This document shows, piece after piece, positions 23,114-60,369 of a stretch of DNA of 64,000 nt (the stretch's first letter is position 1; each line of letters opens with the position of its first letter). Source of the stretch: Candidatus Levybacteria bacterium CG2_30_37_29. GTDB taxonomy: Bacteria; Patescibacteriota; Microgenomatia; Levybacterales; GWA1-39-11. The notes under the pieces are model-generated. The model ran no database searches. It was not told where the DNA came from and worked only from the letters and a program-made list of their open reading frames with translations. The DNA lies in the NCBI GenBank assembly GCA_001873215.1, contig MNYS01000003.1:49455-113454 (forward strand), written 5' to 3'. A program made the translations under genes and the position numbers.

Positions 23114-23133
23114 GGTGGCACCTCAATTAGTCA

Positions 23134-23181: not shown

Positions 23182-23316
23182 CCTAGGAATCTAAACCCTT
23201 TCACTGGTAAAAAGGGGAGCGTTAATCCTTTTAAAATAAGCCCCAAAAGGTATAGGTAATAAATTTAAGTTCAATCCTTCGCTTTAAAGATATATCTAAA
23301 CTTTAAGAATTAATGT

Positions 23317-30621: not shown

Positions 30622-30625
30622 AATT

Positions 30626-32830: not shown

Positions 32831-32843
32831 CCCCTTTTTTTTC

Positions 32844-39685: not shown

Positions 39686-39698
39686 TTTTAAAAATATT

Positions 39699-43538: not shown

Positions 43539-43581
43539 GATTAGTAATTTAATCCAAATTAAGGTAAAATAGGAAAATATT

Positions 43582-44007: not shown

Positions 44008-44095
44008 AATTTGCTGCAGATATTAGACAATAGACAGTAAAAATAGATTAGAAATATCTATTTGCTATTCACTATTATCTATTTACTAAATAACT

Positions 44096-44575
44096 ATGTC
44101 ACGCGGTGGAACAAAAATTAAAAAAAGAATAAATCCCGGGGATGCGGTTTACTCAAACCTGCTTTTGGGGAAATTTATCAACGGTCTTATGATGCACGGA
44201 AAAAAAACCGTTGCGCAAAGAGTGGTATACGGCGCGTTTGAAATATTAAAAAAAGAAGGACATGACCCACTTGGAGTTTTTGAGCAGGCAATTGAAACTG
44301 TTGGGCCAAAAGTAGAGGTAAAAGCCAGAAGAATCGGAGGAGCGGCGTATCAAGTTCCAACAGAGGTTAGGGGAGGACGAAAAAATTCCTTGGCGATTAG
44401 ATGGATTTTGGATGCGGCAAAAAAAAGACCGACTTCAGAATTTAAAACATTTTCGCAAAAACTCGCTGCAGAGCTTTTGGACGCTTCAAAAAATGCGGGC
44501 GAGGCAATAAAGAAAAGAGATGTAGCCCACCGTATGGCCGAAGCCAATAAGGCTTTTGCACACTTTAGATTTTAG
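44096..44575 (+). CDS. rpsG: 30S ribosomal protein S7
   Basis: S7 fold motifs RIGGAAYQVP and GEAIKKRDVAHRMAEANKAFAHFR. Confidence 0.95.
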   Translation: MSRGGTKIKKRINPGDAVYSNLLLGKFINGLMMHGKKTVAQRVVYGAFEILKKEGHDPLGVFEQAIETVGPKVEVKARRIGGAAYQVPTEVRGGRKNSLAIRWILDAAKKRPTSEFKTFSQKLAAELLDASKNAGEAIKKRDVAHRMAEANKAFAHFRF

Positions 44576-45299
44576 ATTTTAATTTTTCGTTAGATCTTTT
44601 TACGGCCCGATAAATTGTTCTCAGCTCCTGCATCGATAAAATATCATTCTCCATAATAATTTTTCTGCAATTTTCAGGGTTTTCTTTGTAAAGTTTGTCA
44701 ATGCAGAGAATTAGAACAACTAGGTCAGAAAAAACTTGGTCAACAGACTGACGATCATAAATCATTACATAAATAAACGTTATGCAAATAAGTATAAAGT
44801 TGATGTCAAAAGAATATGGAAAAATATCTACAAGGATTGATAGGAGAATGACAATTTCCAATCCGTTTCTAACTATGTTGTCGCCGTATCCTGAGGAATT
44901 GCTACTAGAAATTATATATATTGCTCCCTCCGGGTGATCTGCTTCCGGTCCTTCAAATTTTACTTGGTGGATATTTTTTAAATAAACAGAAATACTTCTT
45001 CTATTTTTGACATGCACCTTATAATACCAGGTTTTTTTTACAGCAGACCAAAGAGTTTCAGATAAAACAAAAATAAAAAATGTAATAATAATTACTGCCG
45101 TAATTCTTGCGGCTGATACGTAAAATTCAGCCTTGCTTGTAGAGGTGAAAACCGTGATTAAAAAAATACAAACAATAGCCGATGAAAATATTATTTTGTC
45201 GCGTAGGGAAGAAAAGTAATAAAAAGACAAAAACTTATATTTAACGGATATAAAGTCTTCTCTTATTCCAAAAAATAAATTTTTTAATTTCCCCAACAC
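44565..45299 (-). CDS. Hypothetical multi-pass membrane protein, first gene of the insert that separates rpsG from fusA
   Basis: Several hydrophobic helices. No recognised domain. It overlaps the rpsG stop by 11 nt on the opposite strand. Confidence 0.4.
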   Translation of the reverse strand: MLGKLKNLFFGIREDFISVKYKFLSFYYFSSLRDKIIFSSAIVCIFLITVFTSTSKAEFYVSAARITAVIIITFFIFVLSETLWSAVKKTWYYKVHVKNRRSISVYLKNIHQVKFEGPEADHPEGAIYIISSSNSSGYGDNIVRNGLEIVILLSILVDIFPYSFDINFILICITFIYVMIYDRQSVDQVFSDLVVLILCIDKLYKENPENCRKIIMENDILSMQELRTIYRAVKRSNEKLKSKI

Positions 45300-45417
45300 A
45301 CGTCAATTATACTCCCTAAAAACCAAGCCCAAAATTTTTCTTAAATCATAAATCATATATCATCCCAGCCTCAAAAAAAAGCTTGATAAAATTTTCTATC
45401 TGACGTAAAATAAGGTT

Positions 45418-45612
45418 ATGAAACAGAAAAAGATAGATTTCGTAAAATTATTAAAAGGTTTTAAGTCGGGGTGGGTAGGGATTTCCACAGACCATAAAAA
45501 AGTTCTCGTTCACGGGGAAACACTAAAAGAAGCAAAATTAAAAGCAGAGGAAAAAAAATTAGACTTATTTTTCTTCCCCGCCGGTGAGAGATATGATAAC
45601 TTCGTAGGCTAA
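45418..45612 (+). CDS. Small hypothetical protein, upstream partner of a retropepsin-like gene (module copy 2)
   Basis: Homologous to 23317-23559. There is a 2-nt gap to the downstream gene. Confidence 0.4.
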   Translation: MKQKKIDFVKLLKGFKSGWVGISTDHKKVLVHGETLKEAKLKAEEKKLDLFFFPAGERYDNFVG

Positions 45613-45614
45613 AA

Positions 45615-46022
45615 ATGATCACGGTCGAATACAGTCCCATGCCGGGTTTGAAAAATTCTCTACCTCAACCAATGTTACCTTTAAAATTTATTAATGGAAC
45701 AAAAGAAGTTTCAACTTATGCGTTGGTCGATTCCGAAGCAGCCGGAGCTGTAATTTCTACCGTAATCGCAGAAGACTTAGGGATAGACTGGCAAAAGATT
45801 CCGGGAGTCGGTGGATTTTCAGTTGGTGGAAATTTTATTTCTCACGCGGCAAAAATAAAAGTCAGAATATTTGACGAGGAATTTGGATTAAATGTAAATA
45901 TAATTGAAGGAGTGGCTCCATATAAAGCTATTTTGGGTCAAAGAGATTTGTTTCAAAGGGCAAAAATTATTTTCGAAGGATACAAAAAAGTATTTCATAT
46001 TGAATTTAGAAACTACAACTAA
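45615..46022 (+). CDS. Retropepsin-like (clan AA) protein, module copy 2, with an altered active-site motif (DSEA instead of DSG)
   Basis: ALVDSEAAGAVISTVIAEDLGIDW aligns with ALIDSGSDHNIFPAELASEIGLDY of copy 1. C-terminal AILGQRDLFQRAKIIFEGYKKVFHIEF aligns with PVLGRNGFFNYFKKVNFDVKNKNFEL. Confidence 0.5.
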   Translation: MITVEYSPMPGLKNSLPQPMLPLKFINGTKEVSTYALVDSEAAGAVISTVIAEDLGIDWQKIPGVGGFSVGGNFISHAAKIKVRIFDEEFGLNVNIIEGVAPYKAILGQRDLFQRAKIIFEGYKKVFHIEFRNYN

Positions 46023-46295
46023 AACCCATAACCTACTTTTTTTACGAAGTAAAACAAAGGTAGCAAAGCGTCCCATCTATCAACCTATTACCTATAACCT
46101 AGTGAACCTATCACCTACATCAATTTCAAAAAGGTGCTAAAATAAGCCAAAAGCAGTATAATTTTTTCAGTTTTTTTATTCCTAATTTTTATTTGGCTTC
46201 TGGGCCGCGGGGTTTTATTATTTTTTTCCAGTTTAAACATTATTAACAACAGGTATATTTCGGTCAAACATTCAAACGAACATCGGAACGTTCTA

Positions 46296-46319
46296 TCTCA
46301 TGTTCTCGAGAACATGAGA
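46296..46319. promoter_or_regulatory. Perfect 24-bp palindrome TCTCATGTTCTCGAGAACATGAGA flanked by GAACGTT motifs, a candidate operator
   Basis: Perfect dyad centred on CTCGAG, about 90 nt upstream of the MBL-fold hydrolase gene. Both flanks contain GAACGTT. Confidence 0.45.
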
Positions 46320-46405
46320 ACGTTAGGTTATTTTTTCTCGTAATTTAACTCCCTAGCCGTATAATTTTCTTTCTCCCTGACTTTTTTTGTGGTATATTTT
46401 ATCCA

Positions 46406-47068
46406 ATGGAAAATGTGACTTGGTTGGGGCATGCTTCTTTTTGTTTTACCGATTCCCAAACAGGGCAGAAGATTTATTATGTAGATCCGTTCAATTTACC
46501 AAAAAATCCGCCGGCTGGCGGAGCAGATATTATTTTTATCACTCATGCACATTATGATCATTTATCGAATACCGATATTAGTTTAATTCTCAAACCGAAA
46601 ACAACGGTTGTCGCAACACCTGACAGCTTAAAAACTCTAAATATTACTCAAGTTAAATTTCCCGTTGAGCCGAATAAATCATACGAAATTAACGGATTCA
46701 AATTTGATACGGTTCCGGCATACAATGTGGTGCCTGAGCGTTTAAGCTTTCATCCAAAATCAAACAATTGGGTAGGGTACATTTTTAATTTAAACGGTCT
46801 TACAATTTACCATGCGGGAGACACGGATTTTACTGCCGAGATGAATACGTTCGACAAGCTCAGTATTGACATTGCGATGCTTCCGATGGGCGGGACTTAT
46901 ACGATGAATGTTGAAGAGGCAATTGAGGCGGCAAATGCAATTGGCGCAAAAAAAACAATTCCCATGCATTATAAAAGTCTGTTAAAAGAAAAAGCTTGCG
47001 AGGCCGAGGAAAAATTGAAAAAAGGCGTTGTGAATTCTGAAGTCGTGATTCTTGAAGAATTGAGATAA
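46406..47068 (+). CDS. MBL-fold metallo-hydrolase
   Basis: FITHAHYDHL metal-binding motif, HAGDTDF, about 220 aa of beta-lactamase fold. Confidence 0.75.
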   Translation: MENVTWLGHASFCFTDSQTGQKIYYVDPFNLPKNPPAGGADIIFITHAHYDHLSNTDISLILKPKTTVVATPDSLKTLNITQVKFPVEPNKSYEINGFKFDTVPAYNVVPERLSFHPKSNNWVGYIFNLNGLTIYHAGDTDFTAEMNTFDKLSIDIAMLPMGGTYTMNVEEAIEAANAIGAKKTIPMHYKSLLKEKACEAEEKLKKGVVNSEVVILEELR

Positions 47069-47240
47069 TATTTTCTTTGTACTTTTGTCCGCCAAAAGAA
47101 GCAAAACCTCTCGTCGTGTCGTGCTCACGCATTACGTCTTTTCCTCGTTCACTGAAAGAGCCGGACAAGCCTTTCCTCTTTCCTGGCGTTCACTCGGGCA
47201 AGACTTCAAGAGTTGCGCGCGAAACGACGAATATGCTTCA
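47066..47240 (+). repeat. Roughly 175-nt conserved intergenic element, copy A, beginning at the stop codon of the MBL-hydrolase gene
   Basis: Aligns at about 70-80% with 55714-55886. Shared blocks: TAAT.TTT.TTTCTT, TCCGC.AAAAGAA.CAAAA.CTCTCG.CG.GTC, CACTGAAAG, CGGAC, GCCTTTC, CTTTCC.GGCGTTC, TTCAAGA, CG.CGAATAT.CTT. Confidence 0.6.
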
Positions 47241-47338
47241 ATCGCAATGGAAAAATGTACTGCGAATCGAAGAATGAAAGATATTGTGCGCAAAACGATA
47301 AACAAAGCAAAAATGGCGCGCGAAACGATAATGAAAGA

Positions 47339-47977
47339 TTATTCAACAGTAATTCCTAAAATGCGGTCGCCGATTTTTATTGTATTAACCACATTCATTC
47401 CGTCAGTCACAATTCCAAAATTTGTATATTGATTATTGAGCCATGGAGCTTCCGTTTTTGTTATAAAAAATTGTGAATCGTTTGAGATTTTTATGTCGCC
47501 TCCGCGCGCAACACCAACGGATCCAACAACAAATGGTTTTTCGCTTAATTCTGTCGGCAAATCTCCTCCACCGGTACCGTTGCCTTTAGGGTCTCCTCCT
47601 TGGATTACCCAATCTTCAACACGGTGAAACGTAAGATTGTTGTAAAATCCGCTTTGTGCTTTTTGCACAAAATTTGCCACAGTCCCCGGCGCTTCTTTTC
47701 CGTAAAACGAAAAAACAATATCTCCCTTGCTTGTTTTAATAGTGGCCTTTTTTGCCGCAACAGGGTTTATTGTTGGCACAGCAGATGTAGAGGACGGGGT
47801 AACACTAATAGACGGTGCAATTGTAATAAGGCGCTGGACCTGAACGGTTGGTGAAGGTACAACCGGAATTTGCGGAGTGAATGTTGTCTGCTTTGTTTGC
47901 AAAAGAAAGTAGAGGCCGCCAAACCCAATGACGACAAGAACTATAAATATAATCGCTGTTCTACTCATAAAACCCAT
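47339..47977 (-). CDS. Cyclophilin-type peptidyl-prolyl cis-trans isomerase with an N-terminal membrane anchor
   Basis: FHRVEDWVIQGGDPKGNGTGG, FFITK, and the TM anchor IIFIVLVVIGFGGLYFLL. Confidence 0.85.
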   Translation of the reverse strand: MGFMSRTAIIFIVLVVIGFGGLYFLLQTKQTTFTPQIPVVPSPTVQVQRLITIAPSISVTPSSTSAVPTINPVAAKKATIKTSKGDIVFSFYGKEAPGTVANFVQKAQSGFYNNLTFHRVEDWVIQGGDPKGNGTGGGDLPTELSEKPFVVGSVGVARGGDIKISNDSQFFITKTEAPWLNNQYTNFGIVTDGMNVVNTIKIGDRILGITVE

Positions 47978-48024
47978 ACATGAAGACCTATTCTAATCAA
48001 TTTAAATAAAAAATTCAAGGACTA

Positions 48025-48053
48025 TTGACAAACACTCTTTAATGTATTAATAT
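48025..48053 (+). promoter_or_regulatory. Sigma70-like promoter (TTGACA, 17 nt, TAATAT) for the copper locus
   Basis: TTGACA at 48025-48030, TAATAT at 48048-48053. Confidence 0.5.
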
Positions 48054-48073
48054 ATCCCTCATGGGGGGATATA
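48051..48073 (+). promoter_or_regulatory. CsoR-type operator (TATATCCC-N-GGGATATA), overlapping and just downstream of the -10 element
   Basis: TATATCCCTCATGGGGGGATATA has 8-bp inverted arms around a G-tract. It resembles ATACCC-N-GGGGTAT CsoR operators, and it lies 25 nt upstream of csoR. Confidence 0.55.
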
Positions 48074-48097
48074 ATTAGGCATCATTCCGCACAAAAT

Positions 48098-48373
48098 ATG
48101 GCATATAGACCAAAGGATACACAAGAAAGAATTGCTCATCGCCTTAAAATCGCGAGGGGGCATCTTGAGAAGGTTATCAGTATGGTTGAAAACGATTCTT
48201 ACTGCATTGACGTTTTACATCAACTGCAAGCCGTTGAAGGAGCGCTTAAAGAAACCGGCAATGCGGTTTTGGAAAATCATTTAAAAACATGTGCTGCCAA
48301 TGCAATAAAAGAAGGAAAAGGTAACGAGGCAATCGAGGAAATTATGAATGTTTTCAAGAAAAAAGCAAATTAA
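48098..48373 (+). CDS. csoR: CsoR/RcnR-family metal-sensing (copper) repressor
   Basis: DUF156 fold with the Cys...His...Cys ligand pattern (YCIDVLHQ ... C in KTCAAN). Four-helix bundle length. Confidence 0.8.
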   Translation: MAYRPKDTQERIAHRLKIARGHLEKVISMVENDSYCIDVLHQLQAVEGALKETGNAVLENHLKTCAANAIKEGKGNEAIEEIMNVFKKKAN

Positions 48374-48747
48374 TGGATAAAGTTTTTGTTTTTATCGGTG
48401 GAATTTTAGGTATTATTTTTACTGCTTGGTTTTTCTTCGGAAAAAAAGATGAAGCGGTCCAAGCACGTTCTGAAAGCCCGGAAAAAGCAGAGGTCGATAT
48501 TTTAGTAAAAGGAGGATATCAACCTTCTACGGTTCAAATTAAAAAAAACAAAATTACAACTTTTAATTTTACAAGGCAAGATGAAAATAGCTGTCTTGAA
48601 GATGTTATATTGTCCGAATTTAAAATAAAACGCTTTCTTCCTCTCGGAAAAACCGTTTCTTTTGAAATTAAACCTGAAAAGACCGGTACGTTTGACTTCT
48701 CATGCGGCATGGGCATGTTTCATGGAAAACTTATCGTTAAGGATTAA
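48373..48747 (+). CDS. Membrane-anchored cupredoxin-like domain protein
   Basis: N-terminal TM helix. [24 protein letters not shown]...[15 protein letters not shown] resembles the cupredoxin_1-type domain found near copper ATPases. The start overlaps the csoR stop (TAATG). Confidence 0.5.
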
Positions 48748-48748
48748 T

Positions 48749-50992
48749 ATGAAAACACTTAAAAAAACTTATTCACTAAAAGGTATGCATTGTGCATCTT
48801 GCGTACGAGTGATTGAAAGGGCGTTAAAAAAAGTTGACGGGGTTCTTGACGCAAACGTAAATTATGCTTCGGAAAAAGCAATCGTCACAATAGAAGAAAG
48901 AGTAAAAGATGATGATATTTTAAATTCCGTTTCTAGCGTAGGATACCAAGCTTTACTGGCTAATAATACTTCTGATGAAGAAGAAAATAAGGAAAAACAA
49001 AAAGATTTGGTAAGCTTAAGAAATAAAGTTGCTGTAAGTCTTTTTTTCGGAGCAATAATTACGTGGGGAAGTTTTCCCGGATTATCAAATTACGCTCCCG
49101 ATCTTTTTAAAAACTTTTTCTTTCAGCTTTTGCTTGCTACTCCTGTTCAATTCTGGGCAGGGCTCGCTTTTTACAAAGCCACAATTCCTGCACTTAAAAA
49201 TAGAACGGCAAACATGGATACACTTGTCGCAATAGGCACAAGCGTTGCATACTTTTATTCAGTTTTTGTAACGTTTTTTCCTGCAATACTTCAAAAATTT
49301 CAAATAGAAGCAATGCCTTATTTTGATGTTGCATCTGTTGTTATCGGATTAATTTTGTTAGGAAGGTTTTTGGAAGCCAAAGCCAAAGGACAAACCTCTC
49401 AGGCAATAAAAAAATTAATAGGACTTCAGGCAAAAACAGCGCGTGTTGTTAGAGACGGAAAGGAAATTGATGTTCCCATACAAGACGTAGTCGTAGGAGA
49501 TTTAATTCGCGTTAGACCCGGTGAAAAAATTCCGGTTGATGGAATTGTGACTGAGGGAGATTCGTCAATTGACGAATCTATGGTTACCGGAGAAAGCATT
49601 CCGGTTGAGAAAACAATTAAAGATATTGTAATCGGAGCAACATTAAATAAGTCAGGAACATTTCTTTATAAAGCAACAAAAGTAGGAAGTGAGACGATGC
49701 TATCTCAAATTATAAAACTCGTTCAAGAAGCGCAAGGAAGCAAGGCACCAATTCAAAGACTTGCAGATGTAATTTCTTCATATTTTGTTCCTGTCGTTAT
49801 AATTCTTTCTATTTTAACCTTTGTCGTATGGTATGTTTTTGGTCCTACGCCCGCTCTTGTTTTTGCAATTCTAAATTCTATTGCGGTTCTTATAATTGCA
49901 TGCCCGTGCGCAATGGGACTTGCAACACCCACGGCAATAATGGTCGGCACTGGAATAGGCGCTGAAAATGGGATTTTAATAAAAGATGCCCAGAGTCTTG
50001 AAATTGCCCATAAAGTAAATACAATTATTTTTGATAAAACAGGAACTTTGACTCACGGAACACCTAAGGTAACGGATATAGTTAAAGTTCAAAGTTCAAA
50101 ATTCAAAATTCAAAGTGATAGTGAGATATTAAGGTTGGCTGCCTCACTTGAAAAAGGGTCGGAACACTCTTTGGCAGAAGCAATTGTAAAAGACGCAGAA
50201 AATAAAAAAATTACATTAGATAAAATTGATAAATTCAAAGCCGTACCCGGACACGGGGTTGAAGGATTTCTAAAAATGGATAAAGTAATTCTTGGGAATA
50301 GAAAAATGATGGAGAGAGAAAAAGTTAACTTTAAGGATTCTGAAGAACAAATTGAAAAACTTGAGACAGAAGGAAAAACGGTTATGATGATAGCTGTTAA
50401 AAATGAGCTCATCGGGCTAATTGCAGTAGCAGATACGATAAAAGATAGCGCAAAAGAGGCAATACAAATACTTAACAAAATGCGTATTCAGACTATTATG
50501 ATTACTGGAGATAACATGAGAACTGCTGATGCAATAGCTAGAAGTTTGGGAATTTCTAAAATTTTAGCGGATGTTCTTCCTCAAGACAAAGAAAATGAGG
50601 TTAGAAAAATACAAAGTCAGGGAAAAGTTGTGGCAATGGTAGGAGACGGAATAAACGATGCTCCTGCGCTTGCCGCAGCTGATGTAGGAATAGCAATGGG
50701 AAGCGGTACTGACGTTGCAATTGAGGCAGCCGATATAACTCTTATAAATCATGATTTAAAGTCTGTAGTAAAAGCAATTATACTTTCCAAAAAAACAATG
50801 AGAACGATAAAATTAAATCTTTTCTGGGCATTCGGATACAATATAATTCTTATTCCTGTTGCGATGGGAGCTTTATATCCTTTTTCCGGCATACTCTTAA
50901 ATCCAATTTTTGCATCATTTGCTATGGCAACAAGTTCTGTGTCTGTTGTTACAAACTCTTTATTATTAAAACGTGCGAAAATTAATGTATAA
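48749..50992 (+). CDS. copA: Copper-translocating P1B-type ATPase CopA with an N-terminal HMA domain
   Basis: [25 protein letters not shown] ([11 protein letters not shown]), [17 protein letters not shown]. The ATG at 48749 overlaps the upstream stop codon. Confidence 0.9.
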
Positions 50993-51004
50993 TATTGCCA
51001 AGCT

Positions 51005-52033
51005 ATGAATTTAACAGCAGTATTTTTAACAGGACTTTTAACAGGAGGGCTTACGTGCATGGCGGTTCAGGGCGGACTTCTTGCTGCAACAATTGCAAAC
51101 AGAGAAGAAGAAAGGCTTAAAGAAGAAACGAAAAAAGGAAACGCCTTGCCAATTCTTGCTTTTTTAGGAACAAAACTTATAGCATATACGGTTTTGGGAT
51201 TTTTATTGGGTCTTTTGGGAAGCGTTTTCCAGCTTTCCATACCTTTACGGACTACCTTTCAAATCGCGGTTGCTGTTTTTATGATCGGAACTGCTCTAAA
51301 TCTTCTTAATGTTCATCCAATTTTTAGGTACTTTATCATCCAGCCGCCAAAAATTTTGACACGTCTTGTAAGAAATAGATCAAAGAGCAAGGATTTTTTT
51401 GCGCCGGCGCTTTTAGGAGCGTTTACCGTATTTATTCCGTGCGGAACAACGCAAGCAATGATGGTCCTTGCAGTTGGCTCGGGAAATCCGTTTTTAGGAG
51501 CAGCAATTCTTTTCGCGTTTGTCCTTGGAACATCTCCTATATTTTTCATACTGGGATACTTTGCGACAAAACTGGGAGATATTATGCAGAAAAATTTCGC
51601 AAAAGTCGCGGCAATTTCTATTATCCTTTTGGCTATTTACAACCTTGACGGTGCAATCGCGCTTACAGGAAGTAATTGGACACTTAAAAATATGTTTTCA
51701 AAAACAGTGTGTTTTTTTACTCTATGTGATGATGGCTCGAAAACCAACAATATTGCATTACAGGTCACTCAAGGTCCGGTTATTGATATAGAATCATATG
51801 GATACAATCCAAATATTATAAATGTCAAAGCAAATTCTAACGTAACTTTAAAAATTACAAACACAAACGGAAGTGGATGCATACAAGCATTTACTATTCC
51901 TCAATTAGGAGTACAAAAAGTTATTCCGCTGGGAACTTCTGACACAATTTCTTTTACAGCACCAGATGCTCCTCAAGATATTGCATTTATGTGCAGTATG
52001 GGAATGTTTCGGGGAATAATACATGTTATTTAA
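51005..52033 (+). CDS. Polytopic membrane protein (DsbD_2/TauE-like permease) fused to a C-terminal cupredoxin-like domain
   Basis: At least six hydrophobic helices with conserved Cys (GGLTCMAVQGG, FIPCGTTQAM). The C-terminal VKANSNVTLKITNTNGSGC...FMCSMGMFRGIIHV is paralogous to the 48373 cupredoxin-like protein. Confidence 0.45.
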   Translation: MNLTAVFLTGLLTGGLTCMAVQGGLLAATIANREEERLKEETKKGNALPILAFLGTKLIAYTVLGFLLGLLGSVFQLSIPLRTTFQIAVAVFMIGTALNLLNVHPIFRYFIIQPPKILTRLVRNRSKSKDFFAPALLGAFTVFIPCGTTQAMMVLAVGSGNPFLGAAILFAFVLGTSPIFFILGYFATKLGDIMQKNFAKVAAISIILLAIYNLDGAIALTGSNWTLKNMFSKTVCFFTLCDDGSKTNNIALQVTQGPVIDIESYGYNPNIINVKANSNVTLKITNTNGSGCIQAFTIPQLGVQKVIPLGTSDTISFTAPDAPQDIAFMCSMGMFRGIIHVI

Positions 52034-52249
52034 ATGAAAAAAATAAAACTTAAAATAAAAGGTATGCATTGTGCAAGTTGCGCTATGAATATAGATGGTG
52101 ATTTAGAAGATTTGGTAGACGGGGTAAAATCATCCAACACAAGTTATGCAAAGGGAGAAGTTGAGATTGAGTTTGATGAGAAAAATGTGAAAATTGAACA
52201 AATAATAAAGCAAATTACAAAAACAGGATATCAAGCAGAAATAGAATAA
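52034..52249 (+). CDS. copZ: Copper chaperone CopZ (HMA domain)
   Basis: GMHCASCAMNI metal-binding motif, 71 aa ferredoxin-like fold. Confidence 0.8.
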   Translation: MKKIKLKIKGMHCASCAMNIDGDLEDLVDGVKSSNTSYAKGEVEIEFDEKNVKIEQIIKQITKTGYQAEIE

Positions 52250-52256
52250 TTTTAGA

Positions 52257-53324
52257 CTATAGTTCTATAAGGTTTTTTGGAGATTGCGTGAGCAGATTTA
52301 TTTTTTCTCCATCAAAATATACAGTATCTTCTATTCTTACTCCGCCAAAACCATTTATATAAATTCCGGGCTCTATGGTAAAGGGCGTGTTTGGATTAAT
52401 CTTTTCTTTAATTCCTGGGGAAATATGTGGAAGTTCATGGACAGCAAGTCCAACCCCATGTCCAACAGAATGTGGGATATTTGGGTATCCTTGGGAAATA
52501 ATATAATCTCTTGGGATTTTATCCAGATCTTGAGGCGTAAACATTTTTGGTTTAAACCCTTTTTCCTGCCCAATCCTCACTGTTTCGTACATTCTTTTAA
52601 ATTTTTCTGGAGCTTTTCCGAAAAAAACAGTGCGCGTCATGTCTGCGCAATATCCACCAGCCTTTGCGCCAAAATCCAAAAGAACAATTGAGCTTGATTT
52701 AAGTTTGGTTTCATCTGTTTTATGGTGAGGGATTGCAGAATTTTTACCAAAAGCGATAATTGACGGAAAACCAAGTTCTCCTCCGTGTTCGCGAATAAAC
52801 TTTTCAATTTCCCATGCCAATTCAAGCTCTGTTATTCCATTTCGGATCTTTTTTAAAACATAATCGAGAGCAGAGTCCGTAAGGTTGCAAGCTTTATGTA
52901 GTGATTTAAGTTCGGTTTGATCTTTAATTGTTCGAATTTCCTCGATAATACTCTCTGCAAGTTTAAGCTTAACCCCTATTAATTTTTTAAAGCGAATGTA
53001 TTCTGAATAAGTTAGATTTTCTTCAAAACCAATATTTGTTATCTTCTCATGTTTTAAAAACTCTTCAAGCGTTTTTTGGAGTTGGGTTATCAAAAAAACT
53101 TTGATCGGATCTTTTACCGATTTTTTAACCTCATCAAAATAAAGAGTGTTTGTAAATAAAATTGCATATTTTTTTGTCACAAAAATATATGCGTCACGTT
53201 CTTCAGACATAAATCCGGAGTATCCCGTGATGTAGCGGATATTTATGCTTGAGCTAACTAATAGCGCATCAATCTTTCTTTCTGTGAGTATTGTTTGGAT
53301 TTTTTGTATTCTGTTAGGGTTCAT
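52257..53324 (-). CDS. M24-family Xaa-Pro aminopeptidase
   Basis: Creatinase-like N-domain plus the pita-bread domain with metal ligands (DFGAKAGGYCADMTRT, HSVGHGVGLAVHE, ENTV). Confidence 0.8.
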   Translation of the reverse strand: MNPNRIQKIQTILTERKIDALLVSSSINIRYITGYSGFMSEERDAYIFVTKKYAILFTNTLYFDEVKKSVKDPIKVFLITQLQKTLEEFLKHEKITNIGFEENLTYSEYIRFKKLIGVKLKLAESIIEEIRTIKDQTELKSLHKACNLTDSALDYVLKKIRNGITELELAWEIEKFIREHGGELGFPSIIAFGKNSAIPHHKTDETKLKSSSIVLLDFGAKAGGYCADMTRTVFFGKAPEKFKRMYETVRIGQEKGFKPKMFTPQDLDKIPRDYIISQGYPNIPHSVGHGVGLAVHELPHISPGIKEKINPNTPFTIEPGIYINGFGGVRIEDTVYFDGEKINLLTQSPKNLIEL

Positions 53325-53568
53325 TTTCGAAATTATAGCACGGTCTTAGTGTATTTACATAAGGTGATGAGTCTGGTAAAATAACATGAGTTCGAATTTC
53401 GTCAAACCGCTGGCGGTGTCGTAATTCGAATTTTTTTGATTTAGCGTATATTATACCGTTAACTCTTGGCGCGTTCGCAAACTTGCTCACTTGCCAGAGA
53501 CTCACGGTATTTTCTCGCTCAAGGACTTTTATTTATAGAGCGCGTAGCTTGCATAAGGAGCTCAAAAA

Positions 53569-55716
53569 ATGGCTGATACAGATAGAAACGTACCGTTAGA
53601 AAAAATTCGCAATATCGGGATTATTGCGCATATTGACGCGGGAAAAACCACAACTTCCGAGCGCATTCTTTTTTACACAGGAAAGTCCTACAAGATTGGT
53701 GATATTGATGAAGGAAATACTGTTATGGACTGGATGGATCAGGAGCGCGAACGAGGAATTACTATTGTCAGTGCCGCAACAACCACTTTTTGGACACATA
53801 CTCCTATCGGTAAGTCCAGTGACCAAGATGCACCTTACAGGATAAATCTTATCGATACTCCAGGACACGTTGACTTTACAGCAGAGGTTGAAAGATCTCT
53901 CCGCGTTTTGGACGGCGCGGTTACCGTTCTTGATGCTGAAGAAGGCGTCCAGTCGCAAAGTGAAACTGTTTGGCGTCAGGCAGACAAATACAAAGTCCCG
54001 CGAATTTGTTTTATCAACAAAATGGATAAGCTCGGAGCTGATTTTCTAAAGACTGTTGCTTCTATTGAGAAACGTCTTGGTGCAAACCCGATTATTATGG
54101 TTCTTCCGATTGGCGCGGAGCAGGATTTTAAGGGAATTGTTGATCTTTTAAACATGAAAACCATTACTTGGACAGGCGAGGAACTCGGCGCAAAGTATGA
54201 CGTGTCCGATGAAATTCCTGAAAATATGAAAAAGCTAGTTGAAGAGTACCGCCACAAAATGATTGAGAAAATTGCGGAAAACGATGATGAGCTTTTGGAT
54301 AAATATTTAAATGGAACAGAATTGACTGTTGAGGAATTAAAGGCCGGTCTTAGAAAAGCGGTAGTTGGTTATAAAGTAGTTCCAATTTATGCGGGGTCTT
54401 CTCTGCGCAATAAAGGCGTTCAGCCGCTTCTTGATGCAGTCGTTGATTATCTTCCGTCACCAATGGATTTGAAAGAAGTGAAGGGTTTGTCTCCAAAAAC
54501 GGGCGCGGAAGAAATAAGACAATTGGTTCCCGAAGAATCTTTTGCGGGCTTTGCTTTTAAAGTTCAAATTGACCCTCACGTTGGGAAAATTACATTTGTT
54601 CGCCTCTACTCCGGCAAAATTGATTCCGGTTCATACATTTATAATTCTTCAAAAGGAATAAAAGAGCGTGTCGGGCGCCTTCTTCTTATGCATTCAAATC
54701 AACGTGAGGAAATAAAAGTTGCTTATTCCGGAGAAATTGTTGCTGTTGTCGGTTTGAAAGACACGGTTACCGGAGATACATTGTGTGATGAGGCAAAACC
54801 TATTATTCTTGAAAAAATTTCATTTCCTGAGCCTGTTATTTCTCTTGCAATTGAGCCGAAAACAAAAAATGATCAGGAGAAAATGGGACTTGCGCTAAAA
54901 AGGCTTATGGAAGAAGATCCTACTTTTAGCGTTAAGACAAATCATGAAACAGGGCAGACAATTATGTCGGGGATCGGCGAGCTGCAATTGGAGATTATGG
55001 TTGACCGCATGAAGCGGGAATTTGGCGTTGACGCAAATGTAGGCGCGCCTCAAGTGGCCTACAAAGAAACAATTGCTATTGAAGCAACAGGTGAGGGTAA
55101 ATATATTAAGCAAACAGGAGGACGTGGGCAATATGGACACTGTCTTCTTAGAATTGCGCCCGTACCGCGTGGTGAAGGCTACGAATTTGTAAATGCAATA
55201 AAAGGAGGCGCGATTCCTGCCGAATTTATAGGTTCTATTGAAAAAGGAGTTAAGGAGACTTTGGAAAAAGGAATTTTATTGGGGTATCCGATGGTTGATA
55301 TGAAAGTAACTGTTTACGACGGTTCATATCATGATGTTGATTCTTCAGATATTGCTTTTAAAATTGCTGCGAGTATGGCGCTTCAAACAGCTTCCAAAAA
55401 AGCAAATCTACAACTTCTTGAACCGATTATGAAAATTGAGGTGACAACTCCTGAAGAATTTATGGGAGATGTAATAGGTGATCTTAGTTCAAAGCGTGCG
55501 CAAATCACAGGAACAGAAGAACGCGGAAATGCGCGCATAATTTTGGGTCTTGTTCCGCTGTCAGAACTTTCAGGATACGCGACGACTCTTAGGTCTATGT
55601 CGCAGGGACGCGCTACTTATTATATGGAACCTTCGCATTACGAAGAAGTTCCGCGAAACATTGTTGAAGCAATGCTTGCCAAATCCACATTCACCGGAAG
55701 AATTACCGCGCAGTAA
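53569..55716 (+). CDS. fusA: Elongation factor G
   Basis: [28 protein letters not shown], and domains II-V. Confidence 0.95.
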
Positions 55717-55886
55717 TTTATTTCTTGTTCTTTTTTCCGCAAAAAGAACCAAAAGCTCTCGCCGAGTCTTGTTCAAGCTTTCAAAATTTATTTCACTCAC
55801 TGAAAGCATCGGACTTCGCCTTTCAGCTTTCCGGGCGTTCGTTCAACAAATTTTTCAAGATTTCACTTCAAATCGGCGAATATACT
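55714..55886 (+). repeat. Roughly 175-nt conserved intergenic element, copy B, beginning at the fusA stop codon
   Basis: Homologous to 47066-47240 in the same orientation. Confidence 0.6.
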
Positions 55887-55910
55887 TAGAATTTAGTATA
55901 ATTAATTGTT

Positions 55911-57086
55911 ATGGCTAGGGTTGCTCTGTCCGAATATGCTGCCAAGATGGCGCTCCACACTTTTTTAGGCCTTACTTATCACGGCCTATCTTTTAATGCC
56001 GATACCGATGTTGTCGAAAAAATTAATGAGTTTGTTCGTCCCGACAGAAAATATGTTGTAAAAGTTGATGAAGGGGTAAAACGCAGGATGAAACAAGGCT
56101 TAGTCACCCTTGATACCGATCTTAATGGAGTTATTCTTGCAATAGAAAATTACAGAAAGCGCGGCTATTCATATTTTTTAGTCGAAGAATATGTTCCTCA
56201 TGATTCATCTCTTGAGAAGTATTTATCCCTTGAGAGAACAACTCTTGGAACCGTTGTTTCGTATTCGCATAAAGGAGGAATAGATATTGAAAAACATAAA
56301 GAAGAAGTAGAAACGCTTCTTTTAAAAGATTTACAAGCCGCACGAAGCGTTGCAGAAGGATTGGGAATGGATGAAGAAGTTTTTTTGAAATTAAAAGAGG
56401 CATTTGACGATCTTTATTTTTCATTTCTTGAAATAAATCCGCTTGTTGTTAAGTTTGACAGCTTTCAGATTTTGGATATTGCAGGAGAAGTAGATAGCGC
56501 GGCAGAATTTTTTGTCCAAGACTGGTCTTCTTCTGACTTTCGTAATGCTCGTGCTTCAAAGCTAACTGATGAGGAAAAAAATATTTTGCGGCTTTCGGCA
56601 AAAAGTCCGGCAGCATTTAAATTAAATGTTCTAAATCCTGACGGAAGCATTTTTATGCTTCTTTCAGGCGGCGGCGCAAGTATTGTTTTGGCTGATGAAG
56701 TAAAAAATATTGGCCATGGAGGAGAGCTTGCAAATTACGGGGAGTATTCCGGAAACCCGAATGAGGAAGAAACCTACATTTATACAAAAAATTTACTAAG
56801 TTTGCTTCTTAAATCTGAATCAGACAAAAAAGTATTGATTATTGCCGGAGGAGTTGCAAATTTTACTGATGTCAGAATAACTTTTAAAGGAATTATTAAT
56901 GCAATTTCAGAGGTGAGCGAGAAATTAAAAGATCAAGGTATTGAAATTTATGTACGGCGCGGGGGTCCTCACCAAAAAGAGGGATTGAAGCTTATAAGCG
57001 ATTTTGTTTCCGAAAACGGGCTTATCGGAAAAGTTCACGGACCGGAAATGATATTAACAGACATAATTCATGAAGCTATAAAATAA
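55911..57086 (+). CDS. aclB: ATP-citrate lyase small subunit (AclB, ATP-grasp, SucC-like)
   Basis: DLYFSFLEINPLVV, KLNVLNPDGSIFMLLSGGGASIVLADEV..GGELANYGEYSGNPNEEETYIYTKNLLSL, VLIIAGGVANFTDVRITFKGII and IYVRRGGPHQKEGL match the ACLY N-terminal half block by block. 391 aa, close to the size of a bacterial AclB. Confidence 0.8.
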   Translation: MARVALSEYAAKMALHTFLGLTYHGLSFNADTDVVEKINEFVRPDRKYVVKVDEGVKRRMKQGLVTLDTDLNGVILAIENYRKRGYSYFLVEEYVPHDSSLEKYLSLERTTLGTVVSYSHKGGIDIEKHKEEVETLLLKDLQAARSVAEGLGMDEEVFLKLKEAFDDLYFSFLEINPLVVKFDSFQILDIAGEVDSAAEFFVQDWSSSDFRNARASKLTDEEKNILRLSAKSPAAFKLNVLNPDGSIFMLLSGGGASIVLADEVKNIGHGGELANYGEYSGNPNEEETYIYTKNLLSLLLKSESDKKVLIIAGGVANFTDVRITFKGIINAISEVSEKLKDQGIEIYVRRGGPHQKEGLKLISDFVSENGLIGKVHGPEMILTDIIHEAIK

Positions 57087-57189
57087 TTTTAAATTACAAA
57101 TTTTAAATTAAAAATGAAATCTAAATGTTTTAAAATTTATAAATTGATAATTGATTGAAAATTAAAAATTCCCGCCTGCAACGTTTAAT

Positions 57190-59022
57190 GTGAAGTATTT
57201 GCGGGCAGGTAAAATTGAAAATTCTGAAACTATGTTAGATATTGAAAAATTGCGAAAACAAAACCATTCAATTCTTTTCATCGGAAGTTATCCGGCTATT
57301 ATTCAAAGTGCTTTGGATTATGAATTTCATTTAGGGCGCGACAAGCCTTCAATTAAAGCAATATTTGCTTCAGGCCGTAAATTTGAGAGATATTTCTTTG
57401 GGAAAAAAGAGATACTTCTTCCTGTGTATTCTTCTTGGGAGAGGATACCTGAAAAAATAAGAAACGGTATAACACTTTTTGTAAATGTTGCTTCCGCAAG
57501 AAGAGTTCTTACGTTAACGGTTGAGGCAATAGATTCTCTGCCAAGTCTTTCGGGAGGAGTTATTTTTGCAGAAAATGTTCCGGAAAAACATGCACTGGAC
57601 TTAAGGGCAATAACAGATTCCAAAAATATTTTTCTAATAGGTCCGGCAAGCGTAGGACTTCTTATTCCTGAAACTCTTAAGCTTGGGGCAATTGGAGGGG
57701 TAGAGTCACAGCAATTAATAGATGCACATATTTTTGATGCTGGAAGTGTTGCCGTTCTTTCGGCTTCCGGAGGTATGACAAACGAGATTATAAATATTGT
57801 AACAGGGATGAATAAAAAAATATCTTTTTCCATGTCTTTTGGAGGAGATAGATTTCCTCTATTGCGCCCATCAGAGGCTTTTTTGGCTGCACAAAATGAT
57901 CCAAAAACCAAAACAATTATTTATTTTGGAGAGCTTGGAGGGGTTGATGAATATGAGGTGGCAAGTCTTATTTCAGAAAAAAAAGTTACAAAAACCGTTA
58001 TTGCCTATATAGCAGGAGTTGTTGCAGAGATTTTTCCTCAAGCTCCTCAGTTTGGACACGCAAAAGCCATGGCAGCAAACCAAAAAGAAACAGCACGCGC
58101 AAAACGTGATGTTTTAGCGGGCGTGGGGGTAAAAATTGCAGAATCATTCTCGCAATTTGTTGATTTAATTGAATCGCTTCCATCTGTTCCAGATGACAAA
58201 AAAAGTAATATAATAGAAGATATGAGTGATAGAAAACATGCACTTATTGCATCAAGTATTTCAAAAGATACCGACGGTACGGTATCGATTTTGGGAGAGG
58301 ACCTTCTTTCTTTTTCAAAAAAGAATTCATTTGCTTACATTGTTTCTTCCCTGTTTTTGGGAAAAAAGATTAAATCTCCTGAATTTGAGGAATTTGTAGA
58401 TTTTGTCTTGCGTCTTCTTGTAGACCATGGTCCTTATGTAAGTGGCGCGGTTAATACGATTATTGCGTCCCGTGCAGGGAGGGATCTTGTGTCAAGTTTG
58501 TCCGCGGGTCTTCTTACGATTGGTCCAAGATTTGGCGGGGCAATAAATGAAGCCGCAGGGAATTGGCTTGAAGGTGTTATGAATAATAAAAACCCCGGCG
58601 AATTTGTTGAAGAATTTGCCGCGAAGAAAAAATATATTCCTGGAATTGGACATAGAAAATACAGAAGTGATTATCCTGACCCAAGGGTATCTGAAATTAT
58701 ATCTTTTTCAGGCGGACTCAAGGGAAAATTTACATCGTTTGCCAGAGAGGTTGAGAAAATAACAGTTGGTAAAAAAGGCAACCTTATTTTAAATGTAGAC
58801 GGTGCAATAGCCGCAGTTGCTCTTGACATTTTGTCAGAAAAGGAGCAATACTCAAATGAAGAGCTTTTGCATCTTTCAGAGATAGAATTTTTTAATGCGC
58901 TTTTTGTTTTAAGTAGATCTGTTGGATTTATAGCGCATTTTCTTGATCAGAAAAGGCTTGACGAAGGAATTTTCAGACTTGAAGAAGACCAGGTTGCTCA
59001 AGCAGAAATACATAAAGAATAA
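57190..59022 (+). CDS. aclA: ATP-citrate lyase large subunit (AclA: CoA-binding/ligase domain plus citrate-synthase-like citryl-CoA lyase domain)
   Basis: Phospho-His loop PQAPQFGHAKAMAANQKETARAKRDVLAGVGVKIAESF against ACLY [38 protein letters not shown]. Citrate-synthase-like GHRKYRSDYPDPR and KKGNLILNVDGAIAAVALDIL. 610 aa. The alternative ATG at 57232 is a possible start. Confidence 0.8.
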   Translation: MKYLRAGKIENSETMLDIEKLRKQNHSILFIGSYPAIIQSALDYEFHLGRDKPSIKAIFASGRKFERYFFGKKEILLPVYSSWERIPEKIRNGITLFVNVASARRVLTLTVEAIDSLPSLSGGVIFAENVPEKHALDLRAITDSKNIFLIGPASVGLLIPETLKLGAIGGVESQQLIDAHIFDAGSVAVLSASGGMTNEIINIVTGMNKKISFSMSFGGDRFPLLRPSEAFLAAQNDPKTKTIIYFGELGGVDEYEVASLISEKKVTKTVIAYIAGVVAEIFPQAPQFGHAKAMAANQKETARAKRDVLAGVGVKIAESFSQFVDLIESLPSVPDDKKSNIIEDMSDRKHALIASSISKDTDGTVSILGEDLLSFSKKNSFAYIVSSLFLGKKIKSPEFEEFVDFVLRLLVDHGPYVSGAVNTIIASRAGRDLVSSLSAGLLTIGPRFGGAINEAAGNWLEGVMNNKNPGEFVEEFAAKKKYIPGIGHRKYRSDYPDPRVSEIISFSGGLKGKFTSFAREVEKITVGKKGNLILNVDGAIAAVALDILSEKEQYSNEELLHLSEIEFFNALFVLSRSVGFIAHFLDQKRLDEGIFRLEEDQVAQAEIHKE

Positions 59023-59024: not shown

Positions 59025-59360
59025 ATGATAAGTCTAAAAAAGAATAAAGAAATGTTTTGGTTTTTTGAAGTTCTTTTTCTTACACCATTGGCAATTTTCT
59101 GGATGGGAGTTTTGATATTGATGTTGGGAAAATCCGAAAGCATTTTGCGCGCGGTTGTAGGTCAGCCTCTTGATCCGATAAGAAGTACTGTTATTGTCAT
59201 TGTTTGTCCGTTTTTTGCGTCTTGGCTTGCGTGGCAGTACACAAAAGAGAATAAAAAAGACAAAAGCACTACCATAAAATACGCAAAGTATATTATGGCG
59301 GTTGGAGTTGTTTCAATAATTCTTGTTCTTCTCTATCTTTACGGTCCAAATTCCAGCTAG
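59025..59360 (+). CDS. Small hypothetical membrane protein
   Basis: Three hydrophobic helices. No recognised domain. Confidence 0.3.
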   Translation: MISLKKNKEMFWFFEVLFLTPLAIFWMGVLILMLGKSESILRAVVGQPLDPIRSTVIVIVCPFFASWLAWQYTKENKKDKSTTIKYAKYIMAVGVVSIILVLLYLYGPNSS

Positions 59361-59403: not shown

Positions 59404-60369
59404 ATGATACTTCACGAAAATTTTTCTCTCAAGGATATTCTTTGGTATAAAATCGGCGGAATTGCTAGATATCTTATTGACGTTGAGAACTCGGAAGATG
59501 TTGAAAAAGCAGCTGAATTCATAAAGAGAAACAAACTTACCAGGGCTTTTTTTATCGGTCAGGGAAGCAATCTAATTTTTACCGATGATTTTTTTGACGG
59601 CGCGGTCGTGCGATTTATTGCGCCAAAAAAGAGTTCTATTCGGCTTGTTGGGAATAGCACTGTTGAGGCATTTGCAGGTGAGCTTCTTGATAATGTTATT
59701 AAATTTTCGTTTGAGAATAGTTTGATTGGTCTTGAATGGGCAGGAGGACTTCCCGGTACTGTGGGGGCGGCAATTCGCGGAAACGTAGGAGCTTTTGGAG
59801 GAGAGATAAAAGACAACGTTAAAGAAGTAACCTTGCTTGAAATAACCGATAAAAAAATGAAACTTATAACGTTAAAAAGGTTCGAGTTAAAATTTGGTTA
59901 TAGAAACTCTCTTGTTAAAAAACACAGAAATCTAATAGTTGTTTCTTCTCTATTCCGTCTTACTCCAACCGATGCGGCCGGTGTCCAGAGAGCCCGTCAA
60001 ACTTATCTTTCAAACATTGAATATAGAAATAGACGCCATCCTCTTGAATTTCCAAATTGCGGAAGTGTATTTAAAAATATTACAGATCCAGAAAAGATAA
60101 AAAGTGTTTTGGAAATTTTTCCCGACCTTGAGGAAAAAATAAAAAGGGATTGGCATGGGAAAGTTGCGATGGGATACCTTATCAAGCGTTTGGATCTTGC
60201 GGAATTTCGCGTTGGAAACGCTCAAATTTCACCAAAACATTGCAATTTTATAGTGAATTTGGGAGGAGCAAAAGCAGAAGATGTTTTATCTATAATAAAA
60301 ACTATTCAAGAAAAATTCCAAGAAACCTTTGAGTTTACCCCCGAAGTTGAGGTGGAGATAGTATGTTAA
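59404..60369 (+). CDS. murB: UDP-N-acetylenolpyruvoylglucosamine reductase MurB
   Basis: FAD-binding N-domain (YKIGGIARYLI...IGQGSNLIF) and GGLPGTVGAAIRGNVGAFGGEI. The likely start is ATG 59404 (MILHENF). The ORF-track start at 59323 overlaps the upstream gene. Confidence 0.8.
   Translation: MILHENFSLKDILWYKIGGIARYLIDVENSEDVEKAAEFIKRNKLTRAFFIGQGSNLIFTDDFFDGAVVRFIAPKKSSIRLVGNSTVEAFAGELLDNVIKFSFENSLIGLEWAGGLPGTVGAAIRGNVGAFGGEIKDNVKEVTLLEITDKKMKLITLKRFELKFGYRNSLVKKHRNLIVVSSLFRLTPTDAAGVQRARQTYLSNIEYRNRRHPLEFPNCGSVFKNITDPEKIKSVLEIFPDLEEKIKRDWHGKVAMGYLIKRLDLAEFRVGNAQISPKHCNFIVNLGGAKAEDVLSIIKTIQEKFQETFEFTPEVEVEIVC

Follow-up and report, generated by a model that had tools for sequence, protein, structure and literature searches.

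A predicted ACLY-type, two-subunit ATP-citrate lyase beside fusA in a Levybacteria genome, with a clade-specific lysine in its phosphohistidine loop

The DNA described here is a stretch of 64,000 nucleotides from contig MNYS01000003.1 (assembly GCA_001873215.1) of Candidatus Levybacteria bacterium CG2_30_37_29, which belongs to the Candidate Phyla Radiation (CPR), and is referred to as the window. Directly downstream of fusA it carries two consecutive genes, aclB and aclA (together aclBA), whose products are almost certainly the beta and alpha subunits of an ACLY-type ATP-citrate lyase (ACL). An initial annotation, made from the nucleotide sequence, had proposed this identity for two open reading frames (ORFs) of 391 and 610 aa; both were recovered exactly where it had placed them, and the phosphohistidine loop, the GHRKY motif and the NLILNVDGAIAAVALDIL segment that it had quoted are all present in AclA. 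The size given for AclA holds for the ORF, but the real protein is probably one of 596 aa that begins at the ATG at 57232, because homologues are 593-600 aa long and align from about residue 15 of the query. The genes and the segments on which the argument depends are as follows.

aclB, 55911..57086, forward strand: ACL beta subunit, 391 aa, ATG start, with an ATP-grasp domain at about residues 1-205 and a citrate-binding domain at residues 217-391.
aclA, 57190..59022, forward strand: ACL alpha subunit, 610 aa as the GTG-start ORF and probably 596 aa from ATG 57232, with a CoA-binding/CoA-ligase part up to about residue 330 and a citryl-CoA-lyase (citrate-synthase-like) module at about residues 352-603.
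Phosphohistidine loop of AclA, 58048-58107, forward strand: QFGHAKAMAANQKETARAKR, residues 287-306.
Lyase-module motifs of AclA, forward strand: GHRKY at residue 487 and NLILNVDGAIAAVALDIL at residues 531-548.
Lyase-module residues of AclA, forward strand: H413 (58426-58428), H488 (58651-58653), R499 (58684-58686) and D537 (58798-58800), equivalent to human ACLY H900, H975, R986 and D1026.

The assignment to ACL is supported by the Pfam domains, the ranking of bit scores, the fusion of the ligase and lyase modules, the retained residues and the position of AclA in a tree. AclB contains Citrate_bind (PF16114, 197 bits), a domain specific to ACL, and Citrate_synth_N (PF24948, the ATP-grasp part), which scores 100 bits against a cut-off of 83; AclA contains Ligase_CoA and Citrate_synt. 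In phmmer searches of the PDB sequences the best E-values were 4e-65 for AclB, with human ACLY, and 7e-99 for AclA, with ACLY-B of M. concilii. The bit scores for AclB and AclA, respectively, are 223 and 321 with human ACLY, 221 and 335 with M. concilii ACLY-A/B, 134 and 204 with the Chlorobium limicola ACL, 60 and 64 with citryl-CoA synthetase (CCS), and 33 and 81 with succinyl-CoA synthetase (SCS), while citryl-CoA lyase (CCL) matches AclA at 70 bits (not applicable to AclB). In its ATG-57232 form AclA aligns continuously over residues 18-589 with residues 19-607 of M. concilii ACLY-B and residues 502-1092 of human ACLY. The CoA-ligase alpha-like domain and the citryl-CoA-lyase module therefore lie in one chain that corresponds end to end to ACLY-B, and this fusion sets the pair apart from the split CCS plus CCL type. 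An AlphaFold2 model of AclB, built with 40 homologues in the alignment, reaches a pLDDT of 89.7, and in Foldseek it matches human and Methanothrix ACLY best (E 1e-42 to 1e-39), with the beta subunits of CCS, Chlorobium ACL and SCS ranked below them.

It is extremely improbable that the two genes encode a divergent SCS, or a CCS with a CCL, that has been misread as ACL. Some homologues do bear names such as "succinyl-CoA synthetase alpha/beta subunit" or "citrate/2-methylcitrate synthase", and NCBIfam, for which no ACL model exists, returns SCS and CCL matches; these are weak and sub-threshold, with sucC at 51 bits (cut-off 376), sucD at 120 bits (cut-off 336) and the CCL match likewise below its threshold. 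Against this, the SCS and CCS scores lie 3-6 times below those of ACLY, AclB has the Citrate_bind domain, the ligase and lyase modules of AclA share a single chain as in ACL, and the tree places AclA inside ACL. A CCS/CCL identity was rejected on two grounds, the lyase module being fused to the alpha subunit, where that type has a separate lyase of about 260 aa and a small subunit without the module, and the CCS and CCL scores being 60-70 bits compared with 220-335 for ACLY. A SucCD identity was rejected as well, with the curated SucC and SucD cut-offs not reached and a lyase module present, unlike the SCS alpha subunit of about 290 aa.

Phylogenetic placement, which the initial annotation had suggested as a check, agrees with this assignment. 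A search of 1.84 billion cluster representatives with AclA gave 137 matches at E <= 1e-30. A neighbour-joining tree was computed from 64 sequences, comprising 54 AclA sequences from this search (full-length or excised), the human and M. concilii enzymes, the window protein and seven named CPR proteins from the related loci; it is distance-based and midpoint-rooted, with the Chlorobiaceae ACL as the named outgroup. Three groups are resolved. The first is a CPR clade that includes the window AclA (bootstrap 92/100), the second combines M. concilii with a Norongarragalinales archaeon (DPANN) and with long proteins of the fused eukaryote type, human ACLY among them, and the third, the outgroup, contains the Chlorobiaceae enzyme. 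The window protein falls inside ACL and not with SCS or CCS/CCL. A tree of this kind leaves the deep branching order provisional.

The residues known to matter in ACLY are kept. Human ACLY numbering was transferred through HMMER alignments to MAFFT alignments of AclA (79 sequences) and AclB (74 sequences) from related genomes. In AclB the ligands of ATP and magnesium are retained as K51, R59, E102, N176 and D189 (human K58, R66, E118, N203 and D216), and those of citrate as G281, N317, T319 and R350 (human G309, N346, T348 and R379); both ligand lists follow the ACLY crystal structures. The GGG at residues 253-255 (human G281-283) is also kept. In AclA the phosphohistidine is H290 (58057-58059), equivalent to human His760 and invariant in 79/79 sequences. 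The equivalents of human E599 and S663-G664-G665 are present in the window and essentially throughout the homologues, the four lyase-module residues H413, H488, R499 and D537 are conserved in 78-79 of the 79, and the equivalents of human R1065 and R1085 are likewise kept. The sole checked position that varies is the equivalent of human Y364, which is mostly Val among homologues. The roles of His760, E599, D1026, H900 and R1065 in the human enzyme, and the assignment of G281-283, S308, E599, S663 and G664-665 to the catalytic centre, are taken from published work (PMC10115795; PMC11365397). The initial annotation had also called for a conservation check, and in this the phosphohistidine proved to be kept in the window and its relatives, together with the lyase-module residues and the ligands of citrate and of ATP/Mg. 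Overall identity among the CPR AclA and AclB homologues is just 50-70%, and the invariance of the catalytic residues across 74-79 homologues at this level of divergence indicates strong purifying selection on an active enzyme. On these grounds the aclBA enzyme is predicted, apparently, to be catalytically competent.

One substitution distinguishes the CPR enzymes. Two residues past the phosphohistidine, at the position of human G762, the window AclA has Lys292 (58063-58065), so that the loop reads GHAKA and not GHAGA. Lysine occupies this position in 79/79 genome loci and in 15 of 16 CPR cluster representatives; outside the CPR clade the position is Gly in 44/48 representatives and Lys in none of the 48. 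In a column scan of AclA this was the only position that separates the CPR clade from other ACLs with each side near-fixed. The closest homologues bear the names Candidatus Levybacteria, Patescibacteria group, Saccharibacteria, Roizmanbacteria, Woesebacteria and Dojkabacteria. These names, together with the synteny, also mark the organism as CPR. To judge from these comparisons, the GHAKA enzyme is a distinct CPR clade of ACL that occurs widely among Levy-, Roizman-, Woese-, Dojka- and Saccharibacteria. ACL had initially been described as rare in bacteria; within the CPR it is not rare, hundreds of homologues having been found. In public records the GHAKA enzyme is mostly annotated as "hypothetical" or "citrate synthase".

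The lysine raises the question of whether the chemistry or the substrate of this ACL-like enzyme has changed, in which case Lys292 and the non-conserved Tyr364 equivalent would redirect it to another hydroxy acid or to a regulatory or moonlighting role. The substitution is invariant in the clade and not seen elsewhere, the Y364 position is variable and mostly Val, and the literature offers no characterised member of the clade. We nevertheless consider such a change improbable, as there is no variation at the equivalents of G309, N346, T348 and R379, which bind citrate, or at those of G281-283, E599 and S663-G665 in the catalytic centre and of the lyase-module residues, and the full-length identity to enzymes solved with citrate bound is 35-38%.

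Two observations concern the taxonomic labels attached to these genes. A second type of ACL alpha subunit occurs in CPR bins labelled Candidatus Saccharibacteria (P0140/P0307); it has GHAGA and groups with DPANN and archaeal sequences, which may reflect repeated entry of ACL into the CPR or a contaminated bin. The published Gracilibacterium enzyme is another example of this type. Dozens of species-representative records of metagenome-assembled genomes with a CPR acl locus are labelled "uncultured Gammaproteobacteria bacterium" (L001, L006, L008, L009, L025, L037 and others), one such carrier being a chromosome of 1.61 Mb (OZ246394.1). These labels are probably wrong, because the loci share the synteny of the window and encode an elongation factor G (EF-G) 73-87% identical to that of the window, the same range as in records labelled Levybacteria.

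The genes that flank aclBA most closely in the window are the following.

fusA, 53569..55716, forward strand: EF-G (TIGR00484, 1059 bits), with the start of aclB 194 nt further downstream.
Small membrane protein gene, 59025..59360, forward strand: 111 aa with three transmembrane segments, no Pfam match, between aclA and murB.
murB, 59404..60369, forward strand: UDP-N-acetylmuramate dehydrogenase, 321 aa (TIGR00179, 183.5 bits, cut-off 144.5).

The closest relatives (L002, L003 and L007) also have the 111-aa membrane protein encoded 3' of aclA. Upstream, rpoB, rpoC, rpsL and rpsG (36311-44575) are followed by an insert of about 9 kb and then by fusA-aclB-aclA; the insert, made up of copper-handling and other genes, encodes an MBL hydrolase, a cyclophilin, CopA (48662-50992), a DsbD/cupredoxin protein (51005-52033), an HMA protein (52034-52249) and PepP. 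Beyond murB come genes for an HhH-GPD glycosylase, two NUDIX proteins and a glyoxalase-like protein. The placement of aclBA directly downstream of fusA, as first described, is borne out by the 194-nt gap and the EF-G score. The accompanying suggestion that acl stands in the place of tuf is right as to the position after fusA and wrong as to replacement: tuf is displaced and not lost, because the contig of the same genome continues with tuf about 400 nt past the window end, followed by rpsJ-rplC-rplD-rplW-rplB. The pair and about nine other genes, some 8.7 kb in all, are lodged between fusA and tuf of the str/S10 string. The longer string rpoBC-rpsL-rpsG-fusA-tuf-S10 is broken twice (window 36311-55716; L081 8734-13356). 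The GC content of aclB (0.374) and aclA (0.378) matches the window mean of 0.375, and the two genes are therefore native to the genome, with no recent import. No tRNA genes were found in the 64-kb window.

ACL is the usual marker of the reductive tricarboxylic acid (rTCA) cycle, and is scored as such in metagenome surveys (e.g., PMC9802188; PMC12930757); on that basis aclBA would be the signature enzyme of an autotroph. As the initial annotation had observed, however, the window contains no other gene of the TCA cycle among its approximately 45 annotated ORFs. Neither 2-oxoglutarate:ferredoxin oxidoreductase, fumarate reductase, aconitase nor isocitrate dehydrogenase was found within the 64 kb of the window, over the next 5 kb or across 80 related loci of 20 kb each (10-kb flanks), and the same holds for TCA and rTCA genes at large. 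The CPR is a group known to lack the TCA cycle, and aclBA resembles the non-autotrophic ACLY type more closely than the Chlorobium one. Because a TCA gene is missing from 64 kb of a CPR organism, the enzyme does not appear to belong to an rTCA cycle, and autotrophy on its account is highly improbable.

The related loci, some of whose counts are based on 81 and not 80, give a view of the company that these genes keep. aclB lies immediately 5' of aclA in 76 of 80 loci, the remainder being truncated contigs, and a 4-bp overlap of the two genes is the commonest arrangement. About 33 of 80 loci (26 of 81 once ORFs are filtered) have fusA upstream in the same orientation, in 8 of them as the immediate neighbour, and it is the conserved upstream gene of the Levybacteria-like relatives; tuf lies 2-8.4 kb 3' of aclA in 8. 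The most conserved downstream partner is murB, which 30 of 81 loci carry in the same orientation no more than 1.5 kb from aclBA. Further genes for envelope precursors include ddl (4 loci), glmS (7 loci; TIGR01135, 753 bits) and glmM (6 loci; 446 bits, at the cut-off). A GNAT acetyltransferase also occurs, as do, in at least 7 loci, Acyl_transf_3 membrane O-acyltransferases, which belong to an acetyl-CoA-dependent family. lysA and an aspartate-type aminotransferase are found among the neighbours as well. In 8-9 loci tdh-kbl, whose products convert threonine to glycine and acetyl-CoA, lies directly beside aclBA, upstream in some and downstream in others (L010, L016, L019, L023, L025, L037, L046, L064 and L078). 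An archaeal-type phosphoenolpyruvate (PEP) carboxylase (TIGR02751, 483 bits) is encoded upstream of aclBA in 5 loci; these are Saccharibacteria-like (L045, L049, L053, L056 and L072) and have the order PEP carboxylase (in L072 at 2671-4209), dCTP deaminase, a secreted protein of 564 aa and then aclB-aclA. Three loci contain putative citrate importers, namely a MatC_N/CitMHS di-/tricarboxylate carrier about 1.5 kb from aclA (L047 9206-10456, reverse strand) and MFS carriers directly after aclA (L076) or about 2.7 kb downstream of it (L068 4200-5423). The 564-aa protein (cluster c47), whose gene directly precedes aclB in 7 loci, was weighed as a possible citrate carrier and rejected, since it has a signal peptide only and looks secreted. 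The common theme of the neighbours is suggestive of acetyl-CoA, oxaloacetate and envelope precursors.

The interpretation that we favour, and hold to be likely, is that aclBA is a catalytically competent ACLY-type enzyme forming a stand-alone supply module outside any rTCA cycle. The narrower proposal that its net direction is the cleavage of citrate for biosynthetic supply of acetyl-CoA and oxaloacetate is one for which we consider the balance even. We infer the mechanism from the conserved residues and the ACLY literature, and the physiology from the gene neighbourhoods. ATP bound in the ATP-grasp fold of AclB would phosphorylate His290 on the swinging loop of AclA, and the phosphate would then move from His290 to citrate in the citrate-binding domain of AclB. 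CoA would displace the phosphate to give citryl-CoA, which would be split into acetyl-CoA and oxaloacetate. The citrate would presumably be scavenged from a host or the environment; the acetyl-CoA could serve in N- and O-acetylation of envelope sugars (UDP-GlcNAc, peptidoglycan), and the oxaloacetate could feed aspartate-family precursors. Cytosolic ACLY of eukaryotes performs the same supply of acetyl-CoA and oxaloacetate. The supply role is proposed because murB, ddl, glmS, glmM, acyltransferases, lysA and carriers recur near aclBA in independent arrangements.

The main rival to citrate cleavage is operation chiefly in reverse, with aclBA acting as a citrate synthase that yields ATP (acetyl-CoA + oxaloacetate + ADP + Pi -> citrate + CoA + ATP). 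A fermentative CPR cell would in this way gain ATP by substrate-level phosphorylation, with Tdh and Kbl supplying acetyl-CoA from threonine and PEP carboxylase supplying oxaloacetate. The ACL reaction can run either way, Desulfobacter postgatei offers a precedent (Moeller et al., 1987, as cited in PMC9768450), and both the tdh-kbl genes, in their two arrangements, and the upstream PEP carboxylase would fit. We regard the reverse direction as unlikely, however. It is weakened because no onward route for citrate is seen: citrate would be a dead end, with no aconitase or isocitrate dehydrogenase in the window or any flank. CPR bacteria usually conserve thioester energy by simpler, acetate-forming routes, and the GNAT and Acyl_transf_3 proteins, the GlmS/GlmM pathway and the linkage to murB are a better fit to the production of acetyl-CoA.

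Several points nonetheless weigh against a supply module working by citrate cleavage. The window encodes no citrate carrier and no oxaloacetate-consuming enzyme, and a carrier of the CitMHS type is found in one related locus only. Genome-wide absence of pyruvate:ferredoxin oxidoreductase, pyruvate dehydrogenase, ACS and TCA enzymes is assumed from the general picture of the CPR. The adjacent tdh-kbl, as a source of acetyl-CoA, and PEP carboxylase, as a source of oxaloacetate, fit the reverse direction equally well. The neighbour counts stand without a genome-wide background, and the linkage to murB may be largely inherited synteny. Finally, the invariant change of Gly to Lys so close to the catalytic histidine, absent from the 48 non-CPR representatives, could alter catalysis, and literature searches returned no characterised member of the GHAKA clade.

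A broader version of the supply reading may be put forward tentatively, and we consider it somewhat doubtful. The GHAKA enzyme might be an ancient, vertically kept invention of the CPR that serves as the main or only source of acetyl-CoA and oxaloacetate for the cell wall, made from host citrate, with the lysine tuning the enzyme. If so, citrate would be a key currency of the dependency between symbiont and host, and the enzyme would be a bacterial counterpart of the nucleocytosolic ACLY of eukaryotes. The lysine would in that case tune, for example, reversibility or phosphoryl transfer in a manner unlike any characterised ACL, SCS or ACD. As a single clade-specific residue in the phosphohistidine loop, it is a simple target for mutagenesis.

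The intergenic regions on either side of aclB consist of the following.

fusA-aclB intergenic region, 55717..55910, forward strand: copy B of a repeat of about 175 nt (55717-55890), a hairpin at 55727-55749 and a -10-like TATAAT at 55897-55902.
aclB-aclA spacer, 57087..57231, forward strand: AT-rich, 145 nt.

The repeat of about 175 nt is present at 47069-47245 (copy A) and 55717-55890 (copy B), with 73-74% identity between the copies and a blastn E-value of 3e-15 for the match at 47072-47191. The start of either copy coincides with the stop codon of a forward-strand gene (the MBL hydrolase gene and fusA, respectively), the first hairpin is conserved, and copy B has a fold z-score of -2.9. The core of the repeat is absent from all 80 related loci. 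The initial annotation had noticed this element and had made copy B the leader of aclB; the repeat is real, but a leader is unlikely because the TATAAT hexamer lies 3' of copy B, 8 nt before the aclB ATG, and because copy A sits between convergent genes. The element is probably a 3'-flank or intergenic repeat, two-copy and genome-specific, and may represent a 3' untranslated region, a terminator-like element or a small RNA. No Shine-Dalgarno sequence precedes aclB in this region, and no intrinsic-terminator-like site was found between fusA and aclB. Rfam gave nothing credible in the window or, at permissive settings, in the fusA-aclB spacer, SmY alone appearing at 17 bits (E 0.16). More generally, hexamers resembling TATAAT are over-represented 11-25 nt upstream of start codons in the window (examples are 55897-55902, minus-strand 52257-53324, 61026 and 62917) and Shine-Dalgarno motifs are rare, which together suggest that many mRNAs of this genome are leaderless or have short leaders.

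The spacer between aclB and aclA is atypical, as most relatives have overlapping or abutting genes. Over 62 nt (57082-57143) it is 84% identical to another AT-rich intergenic sequence at 33825-33886, directly 5' of a nucleoside/AMP-phosphorylase-like gene (33888-35165), and this 62-nt repeat may be a shared promoter or regulatory module. The fold of the spacer is not significant (z -1.6). Elsewhere in the window, the 62 nt that end the RNase J gene (22221-22282) are duplicated 912 nt downstream (23133-23194). The two copies flank an ORF for an AbrB/SpoVT-like antitoxin (22402-22677) and a PIN-like ORF (22685-23113), and the cassette at 22402-23113 looks like a toxin-antitoxin insertion with target duplication. 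A secreted protein of 1194 aa with LTD, Fn3-associated and chitobiase-C domains (5015-8599), and a Baseplate_J-like protein of 742 aa followed by a sortase (30602-33590), are possible cell-surface or host-attachment machinery.

Among characterised enzymes, M. concilii ACLY-A/B (6HXI, 6ZNW) and human ACLY (6HXH, 6POE) are the best matches to aclBA in sequence and fold, with the same order of domains and the same phosphohistidine, ATP, citrate and lyase-module residues. The M. concilii enzyme has two subunits, like aclBA, whereas human ACLY is a single fused chain. The window enzyme differs from both in being only 35-38% identical to them, in belonging to a separate CPR clade with GHAKA for GHAGA, and in an AclB about 30 aa shorter, with loop deletions in the ATP-grasp domain. 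AclB and AclA of Chlorobium limicola (6HXJ) are also encoded by two genes (398 and 610 aa) and share the chemistry and motifs of aclBA; reportedly, in work of Kanao and colleagues from 2001, they form the ACL of the rTCA cycle. They are far more distant (134 and 204 bits), lie in the outgroup clade and work within a complete rTCA cycle, unlike anything seen in the window. CCS (6HXQ) and CCL (6HXP) of Hydrogenobacter thermophilus have homologous modules and carry out the same two half-reactions, but their lyase is separate while that of the window is fused in AclA, and they score 60-70 bits. The ACL of D. postgatei is described, where PMC9768450 refers to Moeller et al. (1987), as an ATP-forming citrate synthase; it conserves energy outside autotrophy, but inside a complete oxidative TCA cycle.

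The CPR makes up a large share of bacterial diversity, and the sources of its acetyl-CoA and central building blocks are poorly understood. An intact ACL across Microgenomates-type and Saccharibacteria lineages would give these cells a concrete route from citrate to acetyl-CoA and oxaloacetate, and its linkage to peptidoglycan and amino-sugar genes, tdh-kbl and PEP carboxylase suggests where the products may go. It is also a warning to metagenome surveys that ACL alone is no proof of rTCA autotrophy. The closest biological parallel is Gracilibacterium (BD1-5), in which a two-subunit, archaeal-like ACL, probably laterally acquired and "rarely detected in CPR", occurs together with citrate transporters, and for which cleavage of imported citrate was proposed (Sieber et al., 2019, mBio, PMC6851277), the very role that the initial annotation had suggested for the window enzyme. 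Like the window organism, where no TCA cycle is in view, it is a CPR bacterium without that cycle, and the role proposed for its ACL is the same as the supply role suggested here; its enzyme, however, has the canonical GHAGA, and that of the window belongs to the separate GHAKA clade. A 2025 report found aclAB enriched in Saccharimonadia. ACL in the CPR is thus already known, from Gracilibacteria in 2019 and Saccharimonadia in 2025, and aclBA extends known biology and is no new kind of system. What is new is the widespread CPR clade with its GHAKA signature, the aclB-aclA(-murB) module between fusA and tuf, and the recurrent envelope, threonine and PEP carboxylase neighbours of aclBA.

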